Virus record (IMG/VR): IMGVR_UViG_2563366941_000003
Origin: a virus
Lineage: Duplodnaviria; Heunggongvirae; Uroviricota; Caudoviricetes
Length of the DNA stretch: 11,809 bases
Reading direction: 5' to 3' (one strand)
The notes under the pieces were generated by a model. That model worked only from the letters and a program-made list of their open reading frames with translations. It ran no database searches and was not told the origin of the DNA. Of this stretch, positions 1-11,809 are shown piece by piece (the first letter of the stretch is position 1; every line of letters begins with the position of its first letter). Made by a program: the position numbers and the translations under genes.

Positions 1-128
1 AACTGCAGTTGCCATGTTTTACGGCAGTGAGAGCAGAGATAGCGCTGATGTCCGGCGGTGCTTTTGCCGTTACGCACCACCCCGTCAGTAGCTGAACAGG
101 AGGGACAGCTGATAGAAACAGAAGCCAC
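1..128 (-). CDS. insA: IS1 InsA (transposition regulator / transposase N-terminal part), 5' portion only; 3' end lies outside the window
   Basis: GTG start at 126-128 (minus). Translation [42 protein letters not shown]... matches the InsA zinc-finger N-terminus as I recall it. Confidence 0.8.
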
Positions 129-183
129 TGGAGCACCTCAAAAACACCATCATACACTAAATCAGTAAGTTGGCAGCATCACC
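1..183 (-). mobile_element. IS1 insertion sequence, terminal 183 bp including the ~23-bp terminal inverted repeat (element continues beyond window start)
   Basis: Reverse complement of 1-183 reads GGTGATGCTGCCAACTTACTGATTTAGTGTATGATGG...GTGGCTTCTGTTTCTATCAGCTGTCCC, which I recognise as the IS1 end and insA start. Identity asserted from memory, not from a search. Confidence 0.85.
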
Positions 184-228
184 GAGGCCATCTTCACTAA
201 AAATTTCACGTAATTCTTCGATTTTCAT
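184..228 (-). pseudogene. 5' fragment (15 codons, MKIEELREIFSEDGL) of a gene interrupted by the IS1 insertion
   Basis: ATG at 226-228 (minus) preceded by a GGAAGGA Shine-Dalgarno ~9 nt upstream. The frame runs straight into the IS1 inverted repeat and stops 8 codons inside IS1. Identity of the disrupted gene unknown. Confidence 0.35.
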
Positions 229-354
229 CAACAGAATCCTTCCAGATAAATAGCACTCCCCCTGTTCGGGGTCCATCCCTCTTCTCCCTGCGCGCTACTT
301 AAGTATTTTTGATTCTATTCTGGCACCGTCCAAAACTTCAAACACGTTGAAAAT

Positions 355-382
355 AAAAACAAAAAACCCGCCGAAGCGGGTA
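355..382 (-). terminator. Rho-independent terminator of the two-gene cassette
   Basis: Minus-strand RNA ACCCGC-UUCG-GCGGGU hairpin (GC stem, UUCG tetraloop) followed by a U6 run, 4 nt after the stop of the 386-1489 gene. Confidence 0.65.
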
Positions 383-385
383 TAC

Positions 386-1489
386 TCAAACAATCTGGAA
401 AATATTTCTTGGATTTGTAATAGGTCTGTTGATGGAGAACAACTCACGAATTAAATCTTGGCTCAAGCCAGTTTTCATAAGAATTCTTAGCCAGGTTGCA
501 TCATCCAGCATTTCAATCGCCTCGGCCAGCATGCCGGGTTCTTCAGGGCGCAAAAGTTCATCACCAGGTTCAACTCTCGTATACCCTCTGGAATTAAGAT
601 GCATATAGCCAGTTCTTGCCTGTTCCTGGGTCAATAAGCCTAATGCGCTGGCTCGATAAATACACATTTTAAGGCTGATTTTCCATCTAAGTTTAAATTC
701 AACCAGAGCATTCCAGTCGAATTGCTTACCTCGTATTCGTGGAAATTCTTTAATGAAAGATAACCTGGGAACTAATAAGGCGCTCGAAAAGTGATCGGCT
801 TGTGATTCCGTAAGTTTATCACCTGTCGTTATGCCCTCATGCATTACTAAATGCCCTAATTCATGACCTAAATCAGAGCGAAATCTACATATGCTTTTTT
901 TAACATTGTTCCTGATGATAACAGGCCTGTTATTGTGAACAGTAAAAGCATCAACACGATCATCGACTCCCGTAACATGCGCAACGATTACCCCTAAACT
1001 CTCCGCCAATTTAACCATTGATGATATAGGGCCAAGACCTAAATTCCAGGCACGGCGACAATCTTCTGCCACTCGCTCAATATCATTCGGAGTAAGTAAT
1101 TCAGCCCCTGGGTGCTCCGGTATGTTAACGTCAGGAAATTCGATTTCACCTTCAACAGCAGAAATTATAATATTAAGAATCTCAGCCCTGGCCAATACAC
1201 TATTAGTCAGCGTTTGAGTCCTGGACTTCTTACTCCGAAAATGGCAGACATCACTTTCCAGAGCGTATTTTCGTTCAGTAAAAAGAAAACTGGACTTAAT
1301 CATAAGCGCTGAAGATATTAACTCAAGACATTGCTCCGATGGCCTGCACCCCTTCTCCAGTTTGCTAACGAATTGCTTTGTCTTGCCAATTTTTTCGGCT
1401 AACTCTTCACAAGAAAGCCCAACAGCCATTCTCGCTAGTTTGAGCTTATCACCCCGATACTCAGTGAAGTTATTCACCTGATGTTCCAT
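386..1489 (-). CDS. Fusion protein: N-terminal XRE-family HTH + ImmA/IrrE-type (M78, COG2856-like) zinc metallopeptidase + ~130-aa C-terminal domain of unknown function
   Basis: ORF track 386..1492; ATG at 1487-1489 (GTG at 1490-1492 is an alternative). HTH-like segment LSCEELAEKIGKTKQFVSKLEKG near the N-terminus. HExxH zinc motif HELGHLVMH mid-protein. Overlaps the upstream gene by ~20 nt, suggesting translational coupling. Confidence 0.75.
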   Translation of the reverse strand: MEHQVNNFTEYRGDKLKLARMAVGLSCEELAEKIGKTKQFVSKLEKGCRPSEQCLELISSALMIKSSFLFTERKYALESDVCHFRSKKSRTQTLTNSVLARAEILNIIISAVEGEIEFPDVNIPEHPGAELLTPNDIERVAEDCRRAWNLGLGPISSMVKLAESLGVIVAHVTGVDDRVDAFTVHNNRPVIIRNNVKKSICRFRSDLGHELGHLVMHEGITTGDKLTESQADHFSSALLVPRLSFIKEFPRIRGKQFDWNALVEFKLRWKISLKMCIYRASALGLLTQEQARTGYMHLNSRGYTRVEPGDELLRPEEPGMLAEAIEMLDDATWLRILMKTGLSQDLIRELFSINRPITNPRNIFQIV

Positions 1490-2120
1490 CACTGCTCACA
1501 TCCAAATCTTTATCCTTCGTACGCCGACGAAGAGGCACCTTATTAATCTCCGCTTCGTCAGGGAGTGTGTTATAATCAAGAGGCATAAGCGGCATCGATG
1601 CTGTAGATTGATGAGAAACTATACTAATCTGAGCACCATAAGTATTAAATCCAACAAGAGCTACCTCCCAACGAGGCAGTGTGGACTCTAATTCACCATC
1701 GCCCTCTTCGGATAAAAAAGGCTCAGCTATGACTCGCCATGTAATATCTTGCTCAGCCTCAACATCACCAAACAATGAGAGCTGCTCATACTCTACTTTA
1801 TTTCGACGCAGACGATGTTTCTTTTTGGGGTTATTAATGCAATCTTTGGTAAATTGTAGCGGAACTTTATTTAAAGCAACTACATAGTCCAACCCCTTGG
1901 AAATCATCTCAAGGCCAGGAATTGCATCTTCATTTTGAATAAGATGATTTCTGACCCAATCATAAGCCCTTACACCTTCAGACCAGTTGCTGTCTAATGC
2001 GTGCTTATGATAGTACAGCTGCTCAAGTACGTTAGCGATCTCCGCCAACAAGTGGCGAACATAGTTTTCAGCAAGATAAGGTTGAAATTCCCAACAAGGA
2101 GCTAACTGATTTTCATTCAT
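1470..2120 (-). CDS. Hypothetical 216-aa protein, first gene of the cassette; candidate toxin/effector partner of the HTH-peptidase
   Basis: ATG at 2118-2120, stop at 1470-1472. No motif I can recognise. Basic patch NPKKKHRLRRNK and an acidic C-terminal half. Read as coding from ORF length, overlap with the downstream gene and promoter/terminator context only. Confidence 0.65.
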   Translation of the reverse strand: MNENQLAPCWEFQPYLAENYVRHLLAEIANVLEQLYYHKHALDSNWSEGVRAYDWVRNHLIQNEDAIPGLEMISKGLDYVVALNKVPLQFTKDCINNPKKKHRLRRNKVEYEQLSLFGDVEAEQDITWRVIAEPFLSEEGDGELESTLPRWEVALVGFNTYGAQISIVSHQSTASMPLMPLDYNTLPDEAEINKVPLRRRTKDKDLDVSSDGTSGE

Positions 2121-2149
2121 TTCAAGTTTCGCTTTTTTTAGAATTCGTA

Positions 2150-2190
2150 AACCACATATTTTCGCATTTTTCTATTTTTGTCAACCAGAC
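2150..2190 (-). promoter_or_regulatory. Candidate sigma70 promoter for the two-gene cassette
   Basis: Minus-strand TTGACA (plus coordinates 2179-2184), 17-bp spacer, then AAATAT (2156-2161), ~35 nt upstream of the ATG at 2120. The -35 is perfect, the -10 is weak. Confidence 0.4.
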
Positions 2191-2195
2191 TAATG

Positions 2196-2217
2196 CAAAA
2201 ACCCGCCGAAGCGGGTT
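2196..2217 (-). terminator. Rho-independent terminator downstream of hok
   Basis: Same ACCCGC-UUCG-GCGGGU hairpin as at 355-382, followed by U5 on the minus strand. A further GC stem (about 2258-2281) lies in the hok 3' UTR. Confidence 0.6.
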
Positions 2218-2285
2218 AAGTGCGGGTGCGTTGAGGATGCCTGGCACATCAGAGGTGGCGGGAGATTACTCCCCCGCCGGGTCTC

Positions 2286-2441
2286 TTACTCCTCAGGTTC
2301 GTAAGCTGTGAAGACAGCGACCTCCGTCTGGCCGGTTCGGATTCGTACCTCGCAGAGGTCTTTCCTCGTTACCAGTGCCGTCACAATGACGGTTAAACAG
2401 ATGACGATCAGGGCGATTAACATCGCCTTTTGCTGCTTCAT
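2286..2441 (-). CDS. hokD: Hok/Gef-family type I toxin (51 aa membrane peptide)
   Basis: MKQQKAMLIALIVICLTVIVTALVTRKDLCEVRIRTGQTEVAVFTAYEPEE, with the Hok hallmark hydrophobic N-terminus and the LCEV...R..G..EVA.F.AY core. GGGGAA Shine-Dalgarno 8 nt upstream. Closest to HokD/RelF as I recall it; family assignment is firm, paralog less so. An in-frame upstream ATG at 2496-2498 gives the 70-aa track ORF (mok-like leader frame). Confidence 0.85.
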   Translation of the reverse strand: MKQQKAMLIALIVICLTVIVTALVTRKDLCEVRIRTGQTEVAVFTAYEPEE

Positions 2442-2678
2442 AGCCTGCTTCCCCTTGCCTTTCGGCACGTAAGAGGCTAACCTACATTTGTGAGACATAG
2501 ATTGGGCCTCAGATTAATGTTAAGCGTCTTGCAGGACGCGAAATGTTAACTGGGGCTTTTCTCTATCTGCCTTTCAGTGTTCATGCCTGAGACAGATAGC
2601 CTCAAGCACCCGCAGCCATTCTACTTAACTCACGTCACCTCGCCAATATGAAATCAATCAGAAAGGTGATCCATAAAA

Positions 2679-3365
2679 TCACTCCTTCTCTTCTTTTCCG
2701 TAGTGGAGTTGGCCAATTTTGATAAGAGGGCGTCCCTGAGATTTGCGGTGTAGATTGGTATCGCGCAGAGAATACACACAGCCACAATATTCCTGCTGAT
2801 AGAATTTTTCGCGCTTGCTGATTTCAATCATACGGGACGAGCCGCCCTGCTTGCGCCAGTTATAATCCCAGTACACCATACCCGGATAATGCGCAACAGC
2901 TCGCCGCCCACACTCGTTAACCTGCTGCATATTTTTCCAGCGTGAAATGCCCAGTGAACTGCTGATCACACTGAAACCATTTTCAGCAGCGTACAACGCT
3001 GTCCGCTCAAAACGCATGTCAAAACACATGGTACAACGGATCCCCCTCTCAGGCTCCCATTCCATTCCTTTGGCACGTTCAAACCAGTTGTCGGTGTCGT
3101 AATCAGCATCGATAAACGGCACGCCGTGTTGTTCAGCAAAGCGAATATTTTCATCCTTACGAATTAAATACTCTTTCTGAGGATGAATGTTCGGGTTGTA
3201 GAAAAAGATGGTGTAGTCGATTCCCGAGGCCTGAAGCGCCTCCATCACTTCACCGGAACATGGAGCACAGCAAGAGTGCAGTAGTAGTTTGTTTGCCCCG
3301 TTTGGGAGCTCCAATTTAGGCCGTTTGAAATCAGCAATAGTCATAAATATTTTTATTGGGGTCAT
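2679..3365 (-). CDS. queH: QueH-like (DUF208) epoxyqueuosine reductase homolog
   Basis: N-terminal [11 protein letters not shown] signature plus CTMCFDMRF and EYCGC cysteine motifs typical of DUF208/QueH Fe-S proteins. Start ambiguous between ATG 3363-3365 and ATG 3342-3344; neither has a clear Shine-Dalgarno. Confidence 0.65.
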
Positions 3366-3518
3366 GAAAATAGCACAGAGTGTAGCATCAGAGCAGGGCT
3401 ATCGGGAATATATGTCTAAATCTGGTAATATCTGGTTTTGACGCAAAGCGGACAACCACGCTGGCTCTACCCTGCGCCATGAAAATGTCAATTCACATCT
3501 GAACTAATGCTCTTTAAT

Positions 3519-3944
3519 CTAGTAACGTCTAAAATACCTAACATTTCCTTGATAAAATGCCAGTACACGCTGCATAGCTTCGCTCTTCCGGCACTCGCGA
3601 CAGATTATATTCAGGCGCCTGTCGTAGCGGCGTATTTCGCCGTCTGGTAACGACCAGATAAGGTCCGGATCAACCACTGCAGGTTTCTTCACCTTTGCCC
3701 TTGAGAGTTTTTTGCGAGCATTTTGCCAGTCCTTACGCGCCTGTTCAGACGGGAATAACCCGTAACCAGAGTTGTATACATCGCCACTGGCAACCAGCTC
3801 TCTGGCGAGAACACTCATCAGATATCTTGTCGCACCTGTCTTGGCTTCCAGTTGCCGCAACGTCTCGCGACCGCTCAGACGTACAAGTTCAACAACCTGC
3901 CCTTTAATTTTTTCCCGCTCTTCTTGTGTAAATACTTTTGCCAT
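3519..3944 (-). CDS. Hypothetical phage protein (141 aa), possible DNA-binding fold
   Basis: ATG at 3942-3944 with GGAGG Shine-Dalgarno 6 nt upstream; the track start at 3959 is a TTG. Immediately follows the stop of the upstream gene (3960-3962). No recognised motif. Confidence 0.55.
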   Translation of the reverse strand: MAKVFTQEEREKIKGQVVELVRLSGRETLRQLEAKTGATRYLMSVLARELVASGDVYNSGYGLFPSEQARKDWQNARKKLSRAKVKKPAVVDPDLIWSLPDGEIRRYDRRLNIICRECRKSEAMQRVLAFYQGNVRYFRRY

Positions 3945-3959
3945 AAGCGCCTCCGGCAA

Positions 3960-4730
3960 TCACTTTTCCGATACAACACGGCGGGAAGAATCAGTAATCT
4001 GTCGAACAATATCCCGGTGCTTGTTCAGCTCCCGCAGCGCGGCGCAGACTCGCTCCCACTTCTGAACATCACTTTTCGCCCTGCGCAGCGCCAGGTTTGC
4101 CCTGCGAAGGGACGGAAAAATCAGCTCATCTGCTTGCGTTTCGGTAAACGATGGCAACGGCTGCACAATGTCCGCCACAGTTTCTGTTTTAATTTCTTCC
4201 TGTGTTGCGGCTTCCCGGACTGGTAACGCAGCACCTGCTGGCTGAGGAAAGGCCTTACCATCACTTTCCGTTACCAGCGCGGCTTTCGGCTCTGCTGGTA
4301 AATTATCGCCCGGCATGCAGTAACGAAATTTACCGTTCTGATTAACGCGTGCCAGCCGCCCCGTTGCGGTTACCACCGCCAGCGTGGAAGCAACCTTGCG
4401 AGTACTGACACCGAACTTACCCGCCAGTTCCTCACACGTTTTAGCCCCATCCTGACCGATAAACTCAATCATCATGTCTGCGGTAACTTTTTGTTCGACC
4501 TCCCCGGTCAGCATATCCTGTGCTTCAGATTTTACTGGCCGCTCTTCGGTTACCCGGGATTCACCTTCGCCAGCCAGAAACCAGGTGTGACCAGTTTTAT
4601 CAACGACGCCTTTTCTTTTGAGTTCCCACAGCTCGTTGAGAACCTCTTCACGACTGATATCAAGTCGCGCGGCCAGTTCTACCGATGTGGCTTTTCCCAT
4701 TGCTTTCAGTGCGTCAAATACGGTTTCCAT
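3960..4730 (-). CDS. Hypothetical prophage protein with two winged-helix-like repeats
   Basis: ATG at 4728-4730 with GGAGG Shine-Dalgarno 8 nt upstream; the track start at 4748 is a TTG. Two internally similar HTH-like segments (around [28 protein letters not shown] and [22 protein letters not shown]). Confidence 0.6.
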
Positions 4731-4763
4731 TAAAATTTCCTCCGACAAAATCGTTTCTCAGAT

Positions 4764-5429
4764 TCAAATAAAACCAGCTGCCTTCCGGCGTTCGTATTCC
4801 TGTTTCAGCCGTTCAATTGGCGTTGGCCCTTGCGGGTGTTTCGCCCCTTCCAGTTGTCGTCGCACTGGCGGAACACTCATCCCGTTACCAACATGCTTTG
4901 CCCATTTCGTCAGTTGCCGTTCCGCAAGTCGTTTTAACTCACCCTGCGTCATCTGGCGCTCAATCCCTCTGGTACGCATTTCGAGGCAGATGTGGTACAG
5001 CACAGGCTGAGGCCACGGATATTTGTCGCTTCCGTCATATCGCCAGGACTCATCACGCCAGCGGCGGTACTCCTCCATCACAGCATCCACCGTCAGGCCA
5101 AATGGATTGGCCCCGCTTTCTGAAATCAGCGCCACAAACTCAGCCAGGTCCGGAGGCCATGTTTCACCCGCCCGGCAGCGGTCCATGCACTGGCGGCAGA
5201 CCTGTCGGATTTGCTGCTCAGTCATCGCGCCAATCTGTGCAATCCAGAGCTTCGAAGGTGCGGCCCCGTTCTTCTGGGTCCAGCGGTTCGAATAAACCTC
5301 CCCCATGAGTTCCCACAGCTTCCAGACCGTTTCCGTCGCTGATAAATCCGTTTTCACGTTCCCACTGCTCACGTGCTGCCCGAATTTCCTGAACTGCCCG
5401 TGATGCGGTGCCACCTGGTGCTGCTGCAT
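4764..5429 (-). CDS. Lambda P-like replication protein (DnaB helicase loader)
   Basis: Recalled lambda P aligns over MTEQQIRQV..., WPPDLAEFVALISE and YPWPQPVLYHI. Strong AAGGGGG Shine-Dalgarno 6 nt upstream of the ATG at 5427-5429. Confidence 0.75.
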   Translation of the reverse strand: MQQHQVAPHHGQFRKFGQHVSSGNVKTDLSATETVWKLWELMGEVYSNRWTQKNGAAPSKLWIAQIGAMTEQQIRQVCRQCMDRCRAGETWPPDLAEFVALISESGANPFGLTVDAVMEEYRRWRDESWRYDGSDKYPWPQPVLYHICLEMRTRGIERQMTQGELKRLAERQLTKWAKHVGNGMSVPPVRRQLEGAKHPQGPTPIERLKQEYERRKAAGFI

Positions 5430-6258
5430 GGTTTACCCCCTTGCTGACTGGCTTAACCTGCGCCCTGACGTGATTTACGTGACGGGCGAATTTCTGCTCC
5501 CACTGAACCTGCGTGAAAACTTTCCCCTCCGCTGCCCAGTAGTCCCGGAAAGCGGCAAGTTCAGCAGGTGTAAATTCCGGCTCCGGCAAAGCCATCCCCC
5601 ACAACGCAGCCCGTCGTCGAAAATCCGGCGACGGATGCCAGTCATCGACCATCGGAAATTTCCCGATGGGTTCGCTCAGTCCATCCAGGGATGCAGGTTC
5701 TGCTGCCTGCAACGGCGTACCACTCGACTCACTGGTCGGAGCACTCTCGCGCACGTGCGCGTTATGTGTGGGGTTTAATTCTTTATCTGTATCTTTATCT
5801 GTCGTGACTCGTCGTGACATGTCGTGACATATGCGTGACTCGTCGTGACACCCCTCATTCTGTTTTCGTAATTTTTCCCTCTCGCGCTGCGCTCTCTTGC
5901 GCTCTGCCGGGGATTTCGCGGTTTGTGAAACGTTGCCATTGTCCTCTTTCAGTACCTGGCGTTTTTCCCATCCGGTGATTAAATCTCCATCAAGTACCCG
6001 CCCCTGCATTGCCTGTAAAATTGAATCAATTACTTCTTCCGTCACATCAAGCGCACTTGCTAAATCTTCCGTCGTGACATCAATGTGACCACGTAGTGAC
6101 ACGCCGTGACATGTCGTGACATTTCGTGACGCGCTCACCAGAAGGTGGATATACACTGCCATCACTGTTGCAATTGGCTGCCCTGACACCCTGGCAATTG
6201 TTCGCCACTTAGGGTCATTTGGCATGTCATGCCATAATCTGAGCCAGGCGTTAGCCAT
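5218..6258 (-). CDS. Replication initiator (O-like): N-terminal replisome-organiser domain + DnaT-like C-terminal domain; 3' end uncertain
   Basis: ATG at 6256-6258 with GAGGTG Shine-Dalgarno; GTG at 6262-6264 is the track start. C-terminal segment GKFPMVDDWHPSPDFRRRAALWGMALPEPEFTPAELAAFRDYWAAEGKVFTQVQWEQKFARHV closely matches the E. coli DnaT C-terminal region as I recall it. The open frame runs 212 nt past the P start. Confidence 0.7.
   Translation of the reverse strand: MANAWLRLWHDMPNDPKWRTIARVSGQPIATVMAVYIHLLVSASRNVTTCHGVSLRGHIDVTTEDLASALDVTEEVIDSILQAMQGRVLDGDLITGWEKRQVLKEDNGNVSQTAKSPAERKRAQREREKLRKQNEGCHDESRICHDMSRRVTTDKDTDKELNPTHNAHVRESAPTSESSGTPLQAAEPASLDGLSEPIGKFPMVDDWHPSPDFRRRAALWGMALPEPEFTPAELAAFRDYWAAEGKVFTQVQWEQKFARHVNHVRAQVKPVSKGVNHAAAPGGTASRAVQEIRAAREQWERENGFISDGNGLEAVGTHGGGLFEPLDPEERGRTFEALDCTDWRDD
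5801..5850. repeat. Iteron cluster 1: five GTGAC-core repeats at 10-11 bp spacing, flanked by an AT-richer tract (5776-5800); candidate replication origin inside the initiator gene
   Basis: GTGAC at 5804, 5814, 5824, 5835, 5845. Lies in the linker region of the O-like gene, as lambda ori does; the AT-richer tract is on the P-proximal side. Confidence 0.6.
6071..6130. repeat. Iteron cluster 2: six GTGAC-core repeats at 10-11 bp spacing within the 5' part of the initiator gene
   Basis: GTGAC at 6074, 6085, 6096, 6106, 6116, 6126. Same core and phasing as cluster 1, about 220 bp away. Confidence 0.45.
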
Positions 6259-6329
6259 ACTCACCTCTTCTGATACCGAATCTTTTTACTCACAAATTGC
6301 CGGAAGTGATCCGGTATGAATATTGCGAG

Positions 6330-6755
6330 TCAATGCACAGCCACAATATTTCCTGCAGGGCCACCACGATTCATCTGGTTGAAACCAGCGATCGCCACTG
6401 CGACAAAATCATCAGCGTCTCTCACCAGTCGTTCCCGCGTCTCCACCAGCTCCCGAAAATAAGCTGAACTGTGGCTGCGCATTCGGGCCACCAGCAGAGG
6501 CGGCATTGCTTTTTCGATCGCTGGTAACAACGCCTGAATTTTTTTAACCGCATCAGGAGTGTCTTTCTCCACCCAGCGGAAAATTTTCTGGGTATTGCGA
6601 GCCAGGGCTTCCGGATGGCTGTCGTCATATAATTCCGGGAACGTCATACCAAGCTCAAAATAAGCCCGGGTTATTTCAGCTGCCGGAACTTTTTCACCGT
6701 CCGGATGCGCCCAGGCATTCATCGCCATGCGGATGTGCTCATGCCTGATTTTCAT
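6330..6755 (-). CDS. ydaT: YdaT-family protein (Rac prophage CII-like / toxic protein)
   Basis: MKIRHEHI... N-terminus and ...IVAVH C-terminus at ~140 aa match the YdaT family as recalled. Overlaps ydaS by 17 nt. GGAG Shine-Dalgarno. Confidence 0.7.
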   Translation of the reverse strand: MKIRHEHIRMAMNAWAHPDGEKVPAAEITRAYFELGMTFPELYDDSHPEALARNTQKIFRWVEKDTPDAVKKIQALLPAIEKAMPPLLVARMRSHSSAYFRELVETRERLVRDADDFVAVAIAGFNQMNRGGPAGNIVAVH

Positions 6756-7014
6756 GAATCAACTCCGATGCATTTGGTGTGTTAGCCTTGAATCCAACAG
6801 GTAAGCCGTCGGTTGGATTCGGGTAAATATCAGGCCGGAGTTCATGAGGTGTAACCTCGAAATTCGTTACTTCAGCAACACGTAATGCTTTTTCAGGGCT
6901 GAATCTTTCATAGCCCCCCAGCACTCGACTTACATGCACCTGAGATAAACCCGTTAGCTTCCCAAACTGTAGCTGGGTGATATGTTTCTCTTTTAAATAG
7001 TCTCTTAAGTTCAT
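6739..7014 (-). CDS. ydaS: YdaS-family Cro-like HTH regulator
   Basis: ATG at 7012-7014 with AAGG Shine-Dalgarno; the track start at 7020 is TTG. HTH segment QLQFGKLTGLSQVHVSRVL. ELRPDI motif shared with K-12 YdaS as recalled. Divergent from the repressor gene. Confidence 0.7.
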   Translation of the reverse strand: MNLRDYLKEKHITQLQFGKLTGLSQVHVSRVLGGYERFSPEKALRVAEVTNFEVTPHELRPDIYPNPTDGLPVGFKANTPNASELIHENQA

Positions 7015-7121
7015 AGCCAACCTTCTACGTTATGCCTCGAGCAAATATTAGCCCTGCTAATTTTAAAGATCAATAGCCAGACTATCTTTGATAATATTGG
7101 TAAAACAAATAAACTCTATGT
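7015..7121. promoter_or_regulatory. Divergent promoter/operator region of the immunity switch
   Basis: 107-bp AT-rich intergenic region between the divergent cro-like and repressor genes. Inverted repeats TTAGC-N3-GCTAA (about 7048-7060) and AAAGAT-N13-ATCTTT (about 7065-7089). racR ATG has no Shine-Dalgarno, possibly a leaderless transcript. Confidence 0.4.
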
Positions 7122-7583
7122 ATGAAAAAAACACGCGAAGTGATTGCAACTCCAGAAGCGAGCAAGAATTTAAAAGCCGCATGGAATGCAAGAAAAAAAG
7201 AGCTGAAGCTGACTCAAGAGCTGGCGGCTGAGTTGTTGGGATTCGAATCTCAAGGCACCGTTAGCCAGTATCTGAACGGCAAGATACCGGTAAATACCGA
7301 CGCTGCGCTAAAATTTGCGGCTCTGTTAAAGGTAAAACCAGAGGACATTCGAGAAGACCTTAAAGACTTAATGAATTATGTAAGATCATCAGATACTTAT
7401 GATGATAACTTTTCAGGCAAAGGATGGAGGCTGGTCAATGAAGAACAGGCAGAGTTACTTAACCTCTTCGAGATTCTACCTGCGTCAGAAAAAGCCAAAC
7501 TCCTTAACCAGCTACGTGGACTAAACAAGCTCTACGAGGAAGCCTTCGAGAACATGCTGGCACTAAAGAAACGTAACCAGTAG
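7122..7583 (+). CDS. racR: RacR-like prophage repressor (XRE-family HTH)
   Basis: HTH segment LTQELAAELLGFESQGTVSQYL. Position and orientation match racR relative to ydaS/ydaT in Rac. 153 aa with no S24 peptidase domain. Symbol assigned by synteny plus family resemblance. Confidence 0.6.
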   Translation: MKKTREVIATPEASKNLKAAWNARKKELKLTQELAAELLGFESQGTVSQYLNGKIPVNTDAALKFAALLKVKPEDIREDLKDLMNYVRSSDTYDDNFSGKGWRLVNEEQAELLNLFEILPASEKAKLLNQLRGLNKLYEEAFENMLALKKRNQ

Positions 7584-7609
7584 CCACCGCTCACTACCCC
7601 ATCCACAAC

Positions 7610-7640
7610 AAAAAAACCGACGTCTTAGTCGGTTTTTTTG
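7610..7640 (+). terminator. Rho-independent terminator after racR (potentially bidirectional)
   Basis: A-run, CCGAC-GTCTTA-GTCGG hairpin, then T7 (7633-7639). Confidence 0.7.
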
Positions 7641-7736
7641 TGCCATAACTTCTGCAAATCAGCTGTATAACTAATATTTTTCCCTTGAAAAAACATTTAC
7701 ATAGTTACCAAATCAAAAATATCATACGCCATACTG

Positions 7737-7765
7737 TTGACTTAAAATATCCGCGTTACTAATAT
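7737..7765 (+). promoter_or_regulatory. Candidate sigma70 promoter for the plus-strand early operon
   Basis: TTGACT (7737-7742), 17-bp spacer, TAATAT (7760-7765), about 70 nt upstream of the ATG at 7837. Confidence 0.5.
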
Positions 7766-7836
7766 TTCTATCAAGAACAGCACGGCGCTGTAGGTTTTAG
7801 TTCCGCCACCCGGCGTTAAGGGGAAATGAGGTCAGC

Positions 7837-7992
7837 ATGGATACTATCGAGCTTGGCAACAACGAATCTCTGGTGTACGGCGTGTTTCCCAACCAGGACG
7901 GCACATTCACCGCGATGACGTATACCAAAAGCAAAACGTTTAAAACCGAAAATGGTGCCCGTCGCTGGCTGGAAAGAAACTCAGGTGAGTGA
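7837..7992 (+). CDS. Small protein (51 aa), YdaF/YdaG-like Rac early protein
   Basis: Not in the ORF track (below 60 aa). ATG 7837 with GAGG Shine-Dalgarno 5 nt upstream. Translation MDTIELGNNESLVYGVFPNQDGTFTAMTYTKSKTFKTENGARRWLERNSGE; stop TGA 7990-7992. Size and position match the small genes next to racR in Rac. Confidence 0.5.
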   Translation: MDTIELGNNESLVYGVFPNQDGTFTAMTYTKSKTFKTENGARRWLERNSGE

Positions 7993-7993
7993 T

Positions 7994-8122
7994 ATGGATT
8001 TCGACACAATCATGGAAAAGGCTTACGAAGAATACTTCGATGGTCTTGCCGAAGGCGAAGAAGCTCTCAGCTTCAGTGAATTTAAACAGGCGCTTTCCAG
8101 TTCGGGAAAATCTAACGGCTGA
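7994..8122 (+). CDS. Small protein (42 aa), YdaF/YdaG-like Rac early protein
   Basis: ATG 7994, one nt after the upstream stop (coupled). Translation MDFDTIMEKAYEEYFDGLAEGEEALSFSEFKQALSSSGKSNG; stop TGA 8120-8122. Confidence 0.45.
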   Translation: MDFDTIMEKAYEEYFDGLAEGEEALSFSEFKQALSSSGKSNG

Positions 8123-8151
8123 TAAGCGAAACAGCACCGCGAGGAATCAGT

Positions 8152-8370
8152 ATGCAGAAACGAGAACCCGTCATCATCGCGCCAGACTATACCGATGATG
8201 AACTTTATGAGTGGATGCGCCAGAAAATTAATGCAGTGCAGGATCTGAAATGGGCCAATGAAGCCAGGACTAAGCAGGCTGAAAATCTGTCCGCTCTGGA
8301 GCAGGATATCACCAGGCTGGAAAAAGCAGCGGCATTAAGCATTGCCAGAATGGTTACATACCCACGTTAA
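8152..8370 (+). CDS. Hypothetical protein (72 aa)
   Basis: ATG 8152 with GAGGAA Shine-Dalgarno 5-6 nt upstream; hydrophilic with a predicted helical C-terminal half. No family recognised. Confidence 0.55.
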   Translation: MQKREPVIIAPDYTDDELYEWMRQKINAVQDLKWANEARTKQAENLSALEQDITRLEKAAALSIARMVTYPR

Positions 8371-8392
8371 TAGCTAACCAACGAGGCTAATA

Positions 8393-8794
8393 ATGGAATT
8401 TAAAGATTTACCAATGCCATTCCAGGAAATGGCAGCGAATGTGGTTCGCTCTCAACTGGCGACTCTTGACCTGAGTACTGTAGAAAAGGAAACCATCGAT
8501 ACTATATCCGGTAACGTGCGTCGTGCCTTTATAGGTCTGTATGAAGAGAAGCGCCTATTCGGCGGACAGAATTCGCCTGAAAACAAGAATCAAGCAAATG
8601 ATGAGAAGCTGAAACACATTATCGCCTTACTTTTGGAAGACGCAAAACGTCTACAGCAACTGGAACCAAATGCAGGCACAGAGGCCCGCATTTGGATTGC
8701 CATGAAATCACTCAAATGTGAAAGCAGTGATTATTTCAAAACAACAATTAAAACTACTCAACTTTCGGGAGAGCTACTGAAGAAATTGCCATAA
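8393..8794 (+). CDS. Hypothetical protein (133 aa), AT-rich gene
   Basis: ATG 8393 with GAGG Shine-Dalgarno 6 nt upstream. No family recognised. Visibly AT-richer than the flanks (by eye). Confidence 0.55.
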   Translation: MEFKDLPMPFQEMAANVVRSQLATLDLSTVEKETIDTISGNVRRAFIGLYEEKRLFGGQNSPENKNQANDEKLKHIIALLLEDAKRLQQLEPNAGTEARIWIAMKSLKCESSDYFKTTIKTTQLSGELLKKLP

Positions 8795-9032
8795 GAGCAT
8801 GGTCTTTCTCTTGTTCTGCAAGATGAGCATTAATACCTGGTATGGTTTTTTCAAATTTATCTATCTGTTGAATAACAACTTCGCGGTATACGTTTGTTTT
8901 TGTACCACCAAGCGCAGCCGTTAATGCAGAAAGCATATTTAGTATCATATCAGTGCGATATGAAAGAATCCTGATAGCTTCATCTTGTTCTTCAATAATA
9001 GATTGCAGGGCCTCAATTTGCTTTTTATCCAT
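8754..9032 (-). CDS. Hypothetical protein (92 aa), convergent with and overlapping the 3' end of the 133-aa gene
   Basis: ATG 9030-9032 with AGGAGG Shine-Dalgarno 5 nt upstream; the track start at 9071 is GTG. Helical/coiled-coil-like N-terminus MDKKQIEALQSIIEEQDEAIRIL. The 3' end overlaps the 8393-8794 gene by 41 nt. Confidence 0.5.
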   Translation of the reverse strand: MDKKQIEALQSIIEEQDEAIRILSYRTDMILNMLSALTAALGGTKTNVYREVVIQQIDKFEKTIPGINAHLAEQEKDHALMAISSVALPKVE

Positions 9033-9603
9033 TTCACCCTCCTGAGGGTTGGTAATTAAGGAGTTCTCCACTGGTCAGGTGGAGTGCGTGCGCCGGACAC
9101 GGGTGAGCATCCGGCACTGACAGTTTACTGAAAGGATATGTCCCTGAAAAGTCAGGGCATAACGCGAAAGCGCACGGCGAAATTGGTCTCTCTGTACGGT
9201 GTCGTTAAATTTAGTTCGACCGTGCGCTTCCGGTTGTGGCACTCCGCGAAATGGCGCGGCGGTAAGTATGGCTGGGGTTTCCTCCATTGCTCCAGAAAAT
9301 GCACCGGGTTGTCAGGTTGACCATACGCTTAAGTGACAACCCCGCTACAACGCCCTCTGTTATCAATTTTCTGGTGACATTTGGCGGTATCAGTTTTACT
9401 CCGTGACTGCTCTGCCGCCCTTTTTAAAGTGAATTTTGTGATGCGGTGAATGCGGCTATGCGCACGCGGAACAGTTAAAGCAGTAAGGCGGTATTTTACG
9501 GGCGTAACGAGCATCAACTAACCCGGCGTTAATTGTTAACTGGTTAACGTCACCTGGAGGCACCAGGCACTGCATCACAAAATTCATTGTTGAGGACGCG
9601 ATA

Positions 9604-9792
9604 ATGGAAACGTTATTACCAAACGTTAATACGTCTGAAGGTTGTTTTGAAATTGGTGTCACTATCAGTAACCCTGTATTTACTGAAGATGCCATTAACA
9701 AGAGAAAACACGAACGGGAGTTATTAAATAAAATATGCATTCTTTCAATGCTGGCCCGTTTACGTCCGATACAAAAAGGATGTGCACAATGA
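9604..9792 (+). CDS. Hypothetical small protein (62 aa), in the position occupied by kil-type genes in Rac/lambda
   Basis: ATG 9604 with GAGG Shine-Dalgarno 8 nt upstream. Stop overlaps the next start (ATGA at 9789-9792). Function assigned by position only. Confidence 0.45.
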   Translation: METLLPNVNTSEGCFEIGVTISNPVFTEDAINKRKHERELLNKICILSMLARLRPIQKGCAQ

Positions 9793-9980
9793 ATACAGCA
9801 TTTGCACTTGTTCTGACAGTTTTTCTTGTTTCCGGAGAGCCAGTTGATATTGCAGTCAGTGTTCACAGGACAATGCAGGAGTGTATGACTGCAGCAACCG
9901 AACAGAAAATTCCCGGTAACTGTTACCCGGTCGATAAAGTTATTCACCAGGATAATAACGAAATCCCGGCAGGTCTTTAA
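9789..9980 (+). CDS. Small secreted/membrane protein (63 aa) with N-terminal signal-peptide-like segment
   Basis: ATG 9789 overlaps the upstream stop. MNTAFALVLTVFLVSGEPV hydrophobic leader followed by a Cys-containing hydrophilic tail. The track's 81-aa ORF includes an unlikely upstream extension. Confidence 0.5.
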   Translation: MNTAFALVLTVFLVSGEPVDIAVSVHRTMQECMTAATEQKIPGNCYPVDKVIHQDNNEIPAGL

Positions 9981-10072
9981 AACAGTTCCGTAATAAATAT
10001 CCGGTTTCATTCTTATATGCCAGCAATGGCAGGGATTTGTTCACCCTTAAATCTGTAATGAGGTAAAACAAA

Positions 10073-11809
10073 ATGAGTAAAGTCTTTATTTGCGCCGCCA
10101 TTCCGGACGAACAGGCAATAAAGGAAGAAGGTGCAGTCGCTGTAGCCACTGCCATTGAAGCCGGTGATGAACGTCGCGCCCGCGCAAAATTTCACTGGCA
10201 ATTCCTGGAACATTATCCGGCTGCTCAGGACTGCGCTTATAAATTTCTTGTCTGCGAGGATAAACCCGGTATACCCCGCCCTGCCCTAGATTCCTGGGAT
10301 GCTGAATATATGCAGGAAAACCGCTGGGATGAGGCGTCTGCTTCCTTTGTCCCGGTTGAGACTGAATCAGATCCGATGAACGTCACTTTTGACAAGCTGG
10401 CCCCTGAAGTACAGAACGCTGTCATGGTTAAGTTCGACACATGTGAAAACATCACCGTTGATATGGTGATTAGCGCGCAGGAACTGTTGCAGGAAGACAT
10501 GGCAACATTCGACGGACATATCGTTGAAGCGTTGATGAAAATGCCAGAAGTTAACGCCATGTATCCGGAGCTTAAGCTGCATGCCATCGGGTGGGTTAAG
10601 CATAAATGTAAGCCTGGTGCCAAATGGCCCGAAATTCAGGCAGAGATGCGCATCTGGAAAAAACGTCGCGAAGGTGAACGCAAGGAAGCCGGAAAATACA
10701 CGTCTGTTGTTGATCTCGCCCGCGCCAGAGCCAATCAACAGCACACTGAAAATTCAACAGGAAAAATCAACCCGGTCATTGCTGCCATTCATCGCGAATA
10801 CAAGCAGACATGGAAAACACTGGATGACGAACTGGCCTACGCTCTCTGGCCTGGTGATGTGGATGCCGGAAACATTGACGGCAGCATCCATCGCTGGGCA
10901 AAAAATGAAGTTATCGACAACGACCGCGAAGACTGGAAGCGTATCTCGGCATCAATGCGCAAACAGCCTGATGCCCTTCGCTACGACCGCCAGACTATTT
11001 TTGGCCTTGTCCGTGAACGTCCGATCGACATTCACAAAGACCCTGTGGCACTGAACAAATACATTACTGAATACCTGACTACAAAGGGCGTGTTTGAAGA
11101 TGAAGGAACAAATCAGAGCGCAACTGATACTCTCTCGTCGCCAGTACCAGAAACTGATGCAGTGGAAACGGCAATTCCGGACAACGAAAAAACCGAATGC
11201 AAAGTGGAAGTCGAACCATCTGTAGAACGTGAGGGGCCGTTCTACTTCCTCTTCACCGACAAGGATGGCGAAAAATACGGTCGCGCAAACAAACTTTCTG
11301 GTCTGGATAAGGCGCTGTCTGCTGGGGCTACTGAAATCACGAAAGAAGAATATTTCGCCCGCAAAAACGGTACATACTCAGGTTCACAACAAAATACTGG
11401 TGCATCTGACACGACCGCACAACCAGGGTCAGTAAAAGTTACCGCTGACGAAGTAAACAAAATTATGCAGGCAGCCAATATCAGCCAGCCTGACGCCGAT
11501 GAACTGCTTGCAGTATCACGTGGTGAATTTGTTGAAGGGATTAGCGACCCGAATGATCCGAAATGGGTTAAGGGGAACCAGACCCGCGATTCTGTGAACC
11601 AGAACCAGCAAGAAACGGAACAGAACGACCAGAAAGCGGAACAAAACAGCCCAAATGCGTTACAAAACGAGCCAGAAACGAAACAGCCTGAATCAGTGGC
11701 GCAACAGGAAGTGGAAAAAGTCTGCACCGCCTGCGGTCAGACCGGCGGCGGCAACTGCCCTGATTGTGGCGCGGTAATGGGCGACGCAACATACCAGGAA
11801 ACATTCGAT
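10073..11809 (+). CDS. recE: RecE-like exodeoxyribonuclease VIII, N-terminal 579 codons (3' end beyond window)
   Basis: ATG 10073 with an in-frame TAA 9 nt upstream and GAGG Shine-Dalgarno. Frame open to the last base of the window; missed by the ORF track because there is no stop. Segments LLAVSRGEFVEGISDPNDPKWVKG and C..C...NCPDCGAVMGDATYQETFD match the non-catalytic region of Rac RecE as I recall it. The N-terminal ~400 aa differ from K-12 RecE. Confidence 0.6.
   Translation, partial: MSKVFICAAIPDEQAIKEEGAVAVATAIEAGDERRARAKFHWQFLEHYPAAQDCAYKFLVCEDKPGIPRPALDSWDAEYMQENRWDEASASFVPVETESDPMNVTFDKLAPEVQNAVMVKFDTCENITVDMVISAQELLQEDMATFDGHIVEALMKMPEVNAMYPELKLHAIGWVKHKCKPGAKWPEIQAEMRIWKKRREGERKEAGKYTSVVDLARARANQQHTENSTGKINPVIAAIHREYKQTWKTLDDELAYALWPGDVDAGNIDGSIHRWAKNEVIDNDREDWKRISASMRKQPDALRYDRQTIFGLVRERPIDIHKDPVALNKYITEYLTTKGVFEDEGTNQSATDTLSSPVPETDAVETAIPDNEKTECKVEVEPSVEREGPFYFLFTDKDGEKYGRANKLSGLDKALSAGATEITKEEYFARKNGTYSGSQQNTGASDTTAQPGSVKVTADEVNKIMQAANISQPDADELLAVSRGEFVEGISDPNDPKWVKGNQTRDSVNQNQQETEQNDQKAEQNSPNALQNEPETKQPESVAQQEVEKVCTACGQTGGGNCPDCGAVMGDATYQETFD

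Follow-up and report, generated by a model that had tools for sequence, protein, structure and literature searches.

The window analysed here, the whole stretch of 11,809 nucleotides, starts inside a copy of the insertion sequence IS1 and runs from there into a lambdoid prophage, raising the question of which gene the element interrupts, and whether it simply landed in that gene or is also linked to the loss of neighbouring DNA. The first-pass annotation had proposed an insertion that inactivated the gene downstream of a two-gene cassette in the rightward operon. The interrupted open reading frame is rem, in its 57-aa form, cut after codon 15. Comparison with IS1-free relatives, together with a scaffold that reaches the other side of the element by a join over a gap, points to an IS1-associated deletion of 4,224 bp in a lambdoid prophage next to ompW, a reading to which we give a probability of roughly 0.8.

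The reverse complement of positions 1-183 is the left end of IS1, of the IS1A type, with 183 of 183 nucleotides identical to IS1A of E. coli K-12, the element portion thus lying on the minus strand. Its left terminal inverted repeat (IRL; 23 bp, GGTGATGCTGCCAACTTACTGAT) occupies 161-183 on that strand, as read from the sequence and from the IS1A alignment. The 5' part of insA covers 1-128, also on the minus strand, with a GTG start at 128-126 and 42 codons plus 2 nt in all, a placement transferred via the alignment from the K-12 annotation of insA1 in IS1A; insA is transcribed in the same direction as rem, both being on the minus strand. From base 184 onwards the DNA is not IS1, the break falling exactly at 183/184, and the IS1-free prophage relatives found among 5,426 complete E. 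coli genomes begin to align at base 184, with identity of up to 100%. The meeting of the IS1 terminal repeat with the gene at 183/184, as first annotated, is therefore borne out.

This left junction was absent from all 5,426 complete E. coli genomes, and exact-pattern scans of the GTDB species representatives, IMG/VR and the JGI metagenomes returned no copy of it. Contigs with the junction were retrieved by exact look-up of the product of the 39-aa junction ORF, which gave 24 contigs from two NCBI assemblies and several ENA metagenome assemblies produced with different assemblers. All of them share an identical junction and, apart from KE136617.1, they end 52-188 bp into IS1. An artefact, in which the IS1 at the window edge would come from chimeric assembly or vector contamination, might be suspected from the start of the window inside a repeat at a scaffold gap, and from one metagenome contig with the same junction that looks chimeric on its other side. 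Such an origin is nevertheless extremely improbable, as authentic IS1A sequence continues through 183 bp, the insA start included, and the identical junction stands in 24 independently assembled contigs; having been assembled so many times, it can be regarded neither as a one-off misassembly nor as vector contamination, and the earlier call of an authentic chromosomal IS1 is upheld. The suspicious contig (k141_57572 of the MEGAHIT metagenome ENA ERZ27252993; L010 4580-4665), where the junction stands beside iraP, was itself set aside as a probable chimera. Here window-equivalent 44-363 is attached to the chromosomal ddlA-iraP/phoA-promoter region via about 25 nt of partial similarity (tttgtttttattttcaacgtgtttga), and the join is probably a product of assembly because no complete E. 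coli genome has it.

On the other side of the junction, codons 1-15 of rem (MKIEELREIFSEDGL) occupy 184-228 on the minus strand, assigned to the 57-aa Rem variant (PF27490) from the translation, the intact allele of E. coli 042, the homologues and the Pfam name. The ATG lies at 228-226, the frame is open to base 184, and a Shine-Dalgarno-like GGAAGGA, read from the sequence, is found at 237-243 on the same strand, 8 nt upstream of the start codon. E. coli 042 is among the IS1-free relatives in which this 15-codon frame continues as a 57-aa ORF, MKIEELREIFSEDGLYAVRVENGGITYTALIPDDHVVLSVEAFIEYLERLGFKVVRE, and the 15 retained codons and the DNA upstream of them are identical to the intact 57-aa rem allele. 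The credible gene start put forward earlier is confirmed in this way: its short frame is kept in IS1-free relatives, where it opens a conserved 57-aa rem with 77 homologues. In the window the frame runs on into the element, forming a fusion ORF at 157-228 on the minus strand, by translation, with 15 Rem codons, 8 IS1-encoded codons (GDAANLLI) and a TAG at 159-157; a product of 39 aa is obtained by gene callers, which extend the ORF to the in-frame ATG at 276-274.

Two signals upstream of rem deserve mention, both on the minus strand. A sigma-70 promoter-like site, TTGAAG-18-TAGAAT, lies at 312-341; it is a consensus match only, and the number of promoter-like sites in this upstream region is not above the shuffle expectation. 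An intrinsic-terminator-like hairpin (ACCCGCTTCGGCGGGT followed by a T run) is located at 366-381, between the cassette and rem.

The identification of the gene relies on several comparisons. In a large protein collection, all 77 homologues of the 57-aa ORF are tagged Pfam PF27490, a family that another tool names 'Rem'; the ORF also matches phrog_340 (E=1.4e-17), and the relatives detected by tblastn coincide with genes that carry the annotation rem in Rac-SA53 and in PPompW phages. An alignment of 20 members of 57 aa from E. coli and Salmonella has 15 invariant and 24 nearly invariant columns with the length kept, and this column conservation and constant length fit a real protein. Thus, both a sequence match to the PF27490 family and the same genomic position were found: the interrupted gene shares its N-terminus with rem of the K-12 Qin prophage and PF27490, and it occupies the same place relative to hokD as the annotated rem of Rac-SA53 and PPompW phages. 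It differs from the long Rem variants of 86-95 aa, which resemble the 57-aa variant over approximately the first 25 residues only. This limited likeness explains why RefSeq/PGAP lists a 25-codon pseudogene, 'incomplete, missing C-terminus', at window 184-258 (L001 5971-6045), in place of the intact and conserved 57-aa Rem-family ORF; that the likeness stops after about 25 residues suggests a mosaic joint within the gene.

Searches of the 57-aa Rem against local Pfam-A and NCBIfam gave no match (for Pfam, none at E<=1), and nothing was found among PDB sequences below E=0.5. The AlphaFold (AF2) model is mediocre (pLDDT 70.6, pTM 0.37), with a helix-strand-strand-helix arrangement, and Foldseek with this model returned no match with E<1. 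One source names a homologue (P0023) a 'HicA-like toxin'; this label was rejected, as no HicA/YcfA sequence or fold match was obtained. Whatever its role, rem is certainly inactivated, with 15 of the 57 residues left under either reading, insertion or deletion.

The window represents the early half of a lambdoid prophage, running from an exonuclease gene through immunity and replication to the region downstream of replication. The rightward operon is on the minus strand of the window and comprises, in order, YdaS/YdaT, the DnaT-like and P replication genes, DUF1627, DUF977, QueH, hokD, the two-gene cassette, the hairpin at 381-366 and rem. Positions 184-11809 are 100% identical to prophages of ECO_2_R, MSB1_7C, VR50 and others, and these IS1-free prophages sit beside ompW; since the relatives integrate there, the prophage of the window is assigned to the PPompW type (PMC8112680). 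In the IS1-free relatives, rem is followed by a 90-aa ORF, DUF968, rusA, Q, a Ser/Thr kinase, a PP2C phosphatase, a truncated methyltransferase gene, three tRNAs and the lysis genes.

The far end of the element lies outside the window and is present in scaffold KE136617.1 (GCA_000407745.1, 1.7 Mb; hereafter L004), which has 0 mismatches to the window over 10,276 comparable nt. Window base 1 is the last base ahead of a run of 280 N in this scaffold, and the window begins inside IS1 because that gap lies within the element. The sequence resumes after the gap with the final 221 bp of IS1, 100% identical to IS1A and ending in the right inverted repeat (IRR, ...AAGTTGGAGTCATTACC; L004 10755-10777), and with the IRL in the window both 23-bp terminal repeats of IS1 are present. 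Altogether, 404 of the 768 bp of the element are visible (183 left and 221 right), at 100% identity to IS1A and with the insA start and the 3' end of insB included, the remaining middle 364 bp falling in the gap written as 280 N. The visible parts and the 280 N amount to 684 bp, against 768 bp for one IS1, which, with the same isoform on both sides, fits a single IS1 bridging the two flanks.

Where GATGGCCTC followed by TATGCTGTGCGC... of rem would be expected, the right end of IS1 adjoins AACCCAGTAGGGAATGC... (AACCCAGTAGGG...). This right flank matches the IS1-free prophage of ECO_2_R (L002) from position 4776 downward, at 99.9% over 2,223 nt, and window base 184 corresponds to position 9001 of the same prophage. 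The interval between the two flanks in L002 measures 4,224 bp and is missing between them in L004; in strains 118UI, VR50 and ML35 the same interval is 4,224-4,225 bp long. It holds rem codons 16-57, the 90-aa ORF, DUF968, rusA, Q, the Ser/Thr kinase and the PP2C phosphatase, and the far edge of the deletion is 7 nt past the stop codon of the PP2C phosphatase gene. Thus, as seen across the scaffold gap, the flanks are collinear with one ancestral locus, the interval between them is lost and IS1 stands at the joint, as in an adjacent deletion. An IS1 at the right-hand site, past the PP2C gene, was likewise not found in the 5,426 complete E. coli genomes; as none of these genomes has IS1 at either site, both junctions seem to belong to one lineage. 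No ORF of at least 30 aa spans the right IS1 junction, and the exact 89-aa methylase fragment adjacent to it was not among the representatives in the protein search.

The sequences bordering the element bear on how it arrived. The 8-9 bp target duplication suggested in the first-pass annotation, with GAGGCCATC at 184-192 as its 9-bp candidate (no strand assigned), occurs in one copy only: the 9-mers flanking the two IS1 ends differ, being GATGGCCTC (that is, GAGGCCATC on the rem strand) at one end and AACCCAGTA at the far end in L004, hence there is no target-site duplication (TSD). The lack of a TSD speaks against a simple insertion, not against the element being IS1. The remainder of the gene, expected earlier beyond the far IS1 end, does not appear in L004 either, where DNA from 4,224 bp further on follows through the join over the 280-N gap. 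The proposed inactivation of rem and its position downstream of the cassette in the rightward operon consequently hold, while the simple insertion, judged by L004, does not.

A simple insertion would imply a 9-bp duplication of GAGGCCATC, an intact remainder of rem and of the nin/Q region, and a wrong join in KE136617.1, which would presuppose, for instance, another IS1 4.2 kb on with an unplaced contig separating the copies. Taken by itself, the left junction agrees with such an event, L004 is the only sequence that bridges the IS1, with its halves joined over a 280-N gap of estimated size inside a multi-copy repeat, and IS insertions in rem occur elsewhere with the remainder probably intact (an IS1 fusion, P0042, and an ISEc23 insertion in strain N25 with the 90-aa ORF beyond). 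However, the scaffold sets the right end of IS1 directly against DNA 4.2 kb downstream, the gap estimate suits one IS1 (684 against 768 bp) and not two copies plus 4.2 kb, and both IS1 halves are of the same isoform. Moreover, another IS1 past the PP2C gene would have to have arrived by a separate event, and none of the complete genomes shows an IS1 there. A simple insertion is on these grounds quite unlikely.

For the favoured IS1-associated deletion, it can be proposed that IS1 would have inserted first at one of two sites, in rem or just past the PP2C gene. One end of the element may then have attacked a nearby target in the same molecule, by intramolecular transposition, and the DNA between IS1 and the target would have been lost, leaving an adjacent deletion with IS1 at the joint and no TSD. 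Strain N10 (NZ_CM165902.1) offers a supporting parallel in the same prophage, where an IS3-family element lies just upstream of rem (L015 ~3000; window-equivalent 257/258) and a truncated terminase small-subunit gene follows on its far side, indicating a large IS-associated deletion. The two prophages are alike in having an IS within 75 bp of the same spot and in the loss of everything from rem on; they differ in the IS family and in the size of the deletion, which is far larger in N10 and extends into the terminase gene.

The same final structure, with one IS1, no TSD and the interval lost, would also result if IS1 had inserted twice in direct orientation, in rem and immediately beyond the PP2C gene, and the two copies had then recombined in a RecA-dependent manner. 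IS1 is abundant in E. coli, the median being 10 matches to an IS1 end per genome, but two insertions 4.2 kb apart plus a recombination are less parsimonious, and the searches of the 5,426 complete genomes, of the GTDB representatives, of IMG/VR and of the JGI metagenomes yielded no genome with a single insertion. This route is conceivable though rather unlikely; as the final sequence cannot separate it from an adjacent deletion, the order of events given above is a reconstruction.

Adjacent deletions promoted by IS1 were reportedly described in the gal region of E. coli by Reif and Saedler in 1975. As in those deletions, the IS is kept at a novel joint with one original flank and one formed by nearby sequence, the DNA between is lost and no TSD surrounds the element; the difference is that the event is here deduced from comparative sequence across a scaffold gap. 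IS-mediated adjacent deletions are treated as a standard mutation class (PMC4300727), and PPompW prophages of STEC O145:H28 have been described as defective through IS-mediated deletions (PMC8112680). The latter are of the same prophage type and share the integration site ompW with the window, but another IS and another interval are involved, as the present deletion extends from rem through Q to PP2C and does not concern the lysis cassette, and the host lineage is different, the window being about 90% identical to those prophages. Both IS1 insertion and IS1-promoted deletion are classical and the junction was already in public assemblies, so no new mechanism is described. The deletion at rem would be ordinary, textbook prophage decay, and its value is mostly for annotation: it corrects a simple insertion to an IS1-linked 4.2-kb deletion removing Q, which is useful when prophages of this lineage are scored for inducibility or for the carriage of defence systems.

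Regarding the consequences, the late antiterminator Q would have been lost, presumably with its promoter and its target site. Without Q, going by general lambdoid biology, activation of the lysis and structural genes would be impossible. Provided that the deletion is real, it probably prevents late-gene expression, so that neither lysis nor particles would be expected, and the prophage would stay locked in the chromosome, keeping its immunity, replication, hokD, QueH and RosmerTA genes. L004 has a second gap, of 2,500 N, at 14817-17316 in the lysis region, within the DUF1327 gene.

As for the cargo, the two-gene cassette between hokD and rem (window 386-2120, minus strand) matches the PADLOC models RmrA and RmrT. 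The RmrA product has 368 aa with HTH_3 and Peptidase_M78 domains (E=6.2e-105), and the RmrT product has 216 aa (E=4.6e-25). RmrT and RmrA make up the RosmerTA defence system, and the cassette is accordingly a predicted anti-phage toxin-antitoxin system of the RosmerTA type, which the prophage carries as cargo. Terminator-like hairpins that are nearly identical to each other stand on either side of it, at 2217-2200 and 381-366 on the minus strand. The epoxyqueuosine reductase (QueH) gene is located at 2679-3365 on the minus strand, among the genes downstream of replication, in a slot that appears to be a variable cargo position, as strain 042 has different small genes there.

Other IS events are found around rem. 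In strain N25, ISEc23 (IS66 family) lies in rem codon 7 (L014 ~3000; window-equivalent 208/209), with the 90-aa ORF still beyond it; this insertion and the IS3-family element of N10 are independent events in the same prophage, both no more than 75 bp away from the site of IS1. Two rem::IS1 fusions were also noted, P0042 at codon 43 of the 57-aa variant (L016 6001-6210, GCA_037639355.1) and P0058 of Shigella flexneri in a long rem variant. In P0042 the Rem residues are followed by read-through of the IS1 right end, GNDSNLLIVFYVQIMPDDFVMQLHRF, and P0058 has the same peptide with one substitution, the IS1 being in the opposite orientation to that of the window in both. Of the events counted, three involve IS1 (in the lineage of the window, in P0042 and in P0058), one ISEc23 and one an IS3-family element.

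A rather doubtful but wider idea is that the 5' end of rem and the 100 bp upstream of it might be favoured as an insertion site by several IS families in ompW-type lambdoid prophages, and that deletions removing Q there might be repeatedly selected, locking in useful cargo such as RosmerTA, hokD and QueH. If so, the IS1 deletion would be one case of a prophage domestication driven by IS elements that occurs convergently at a defined hotspot, and not a random hit. Further N-terminal replacement fusions are represented by P0045 and P0012.
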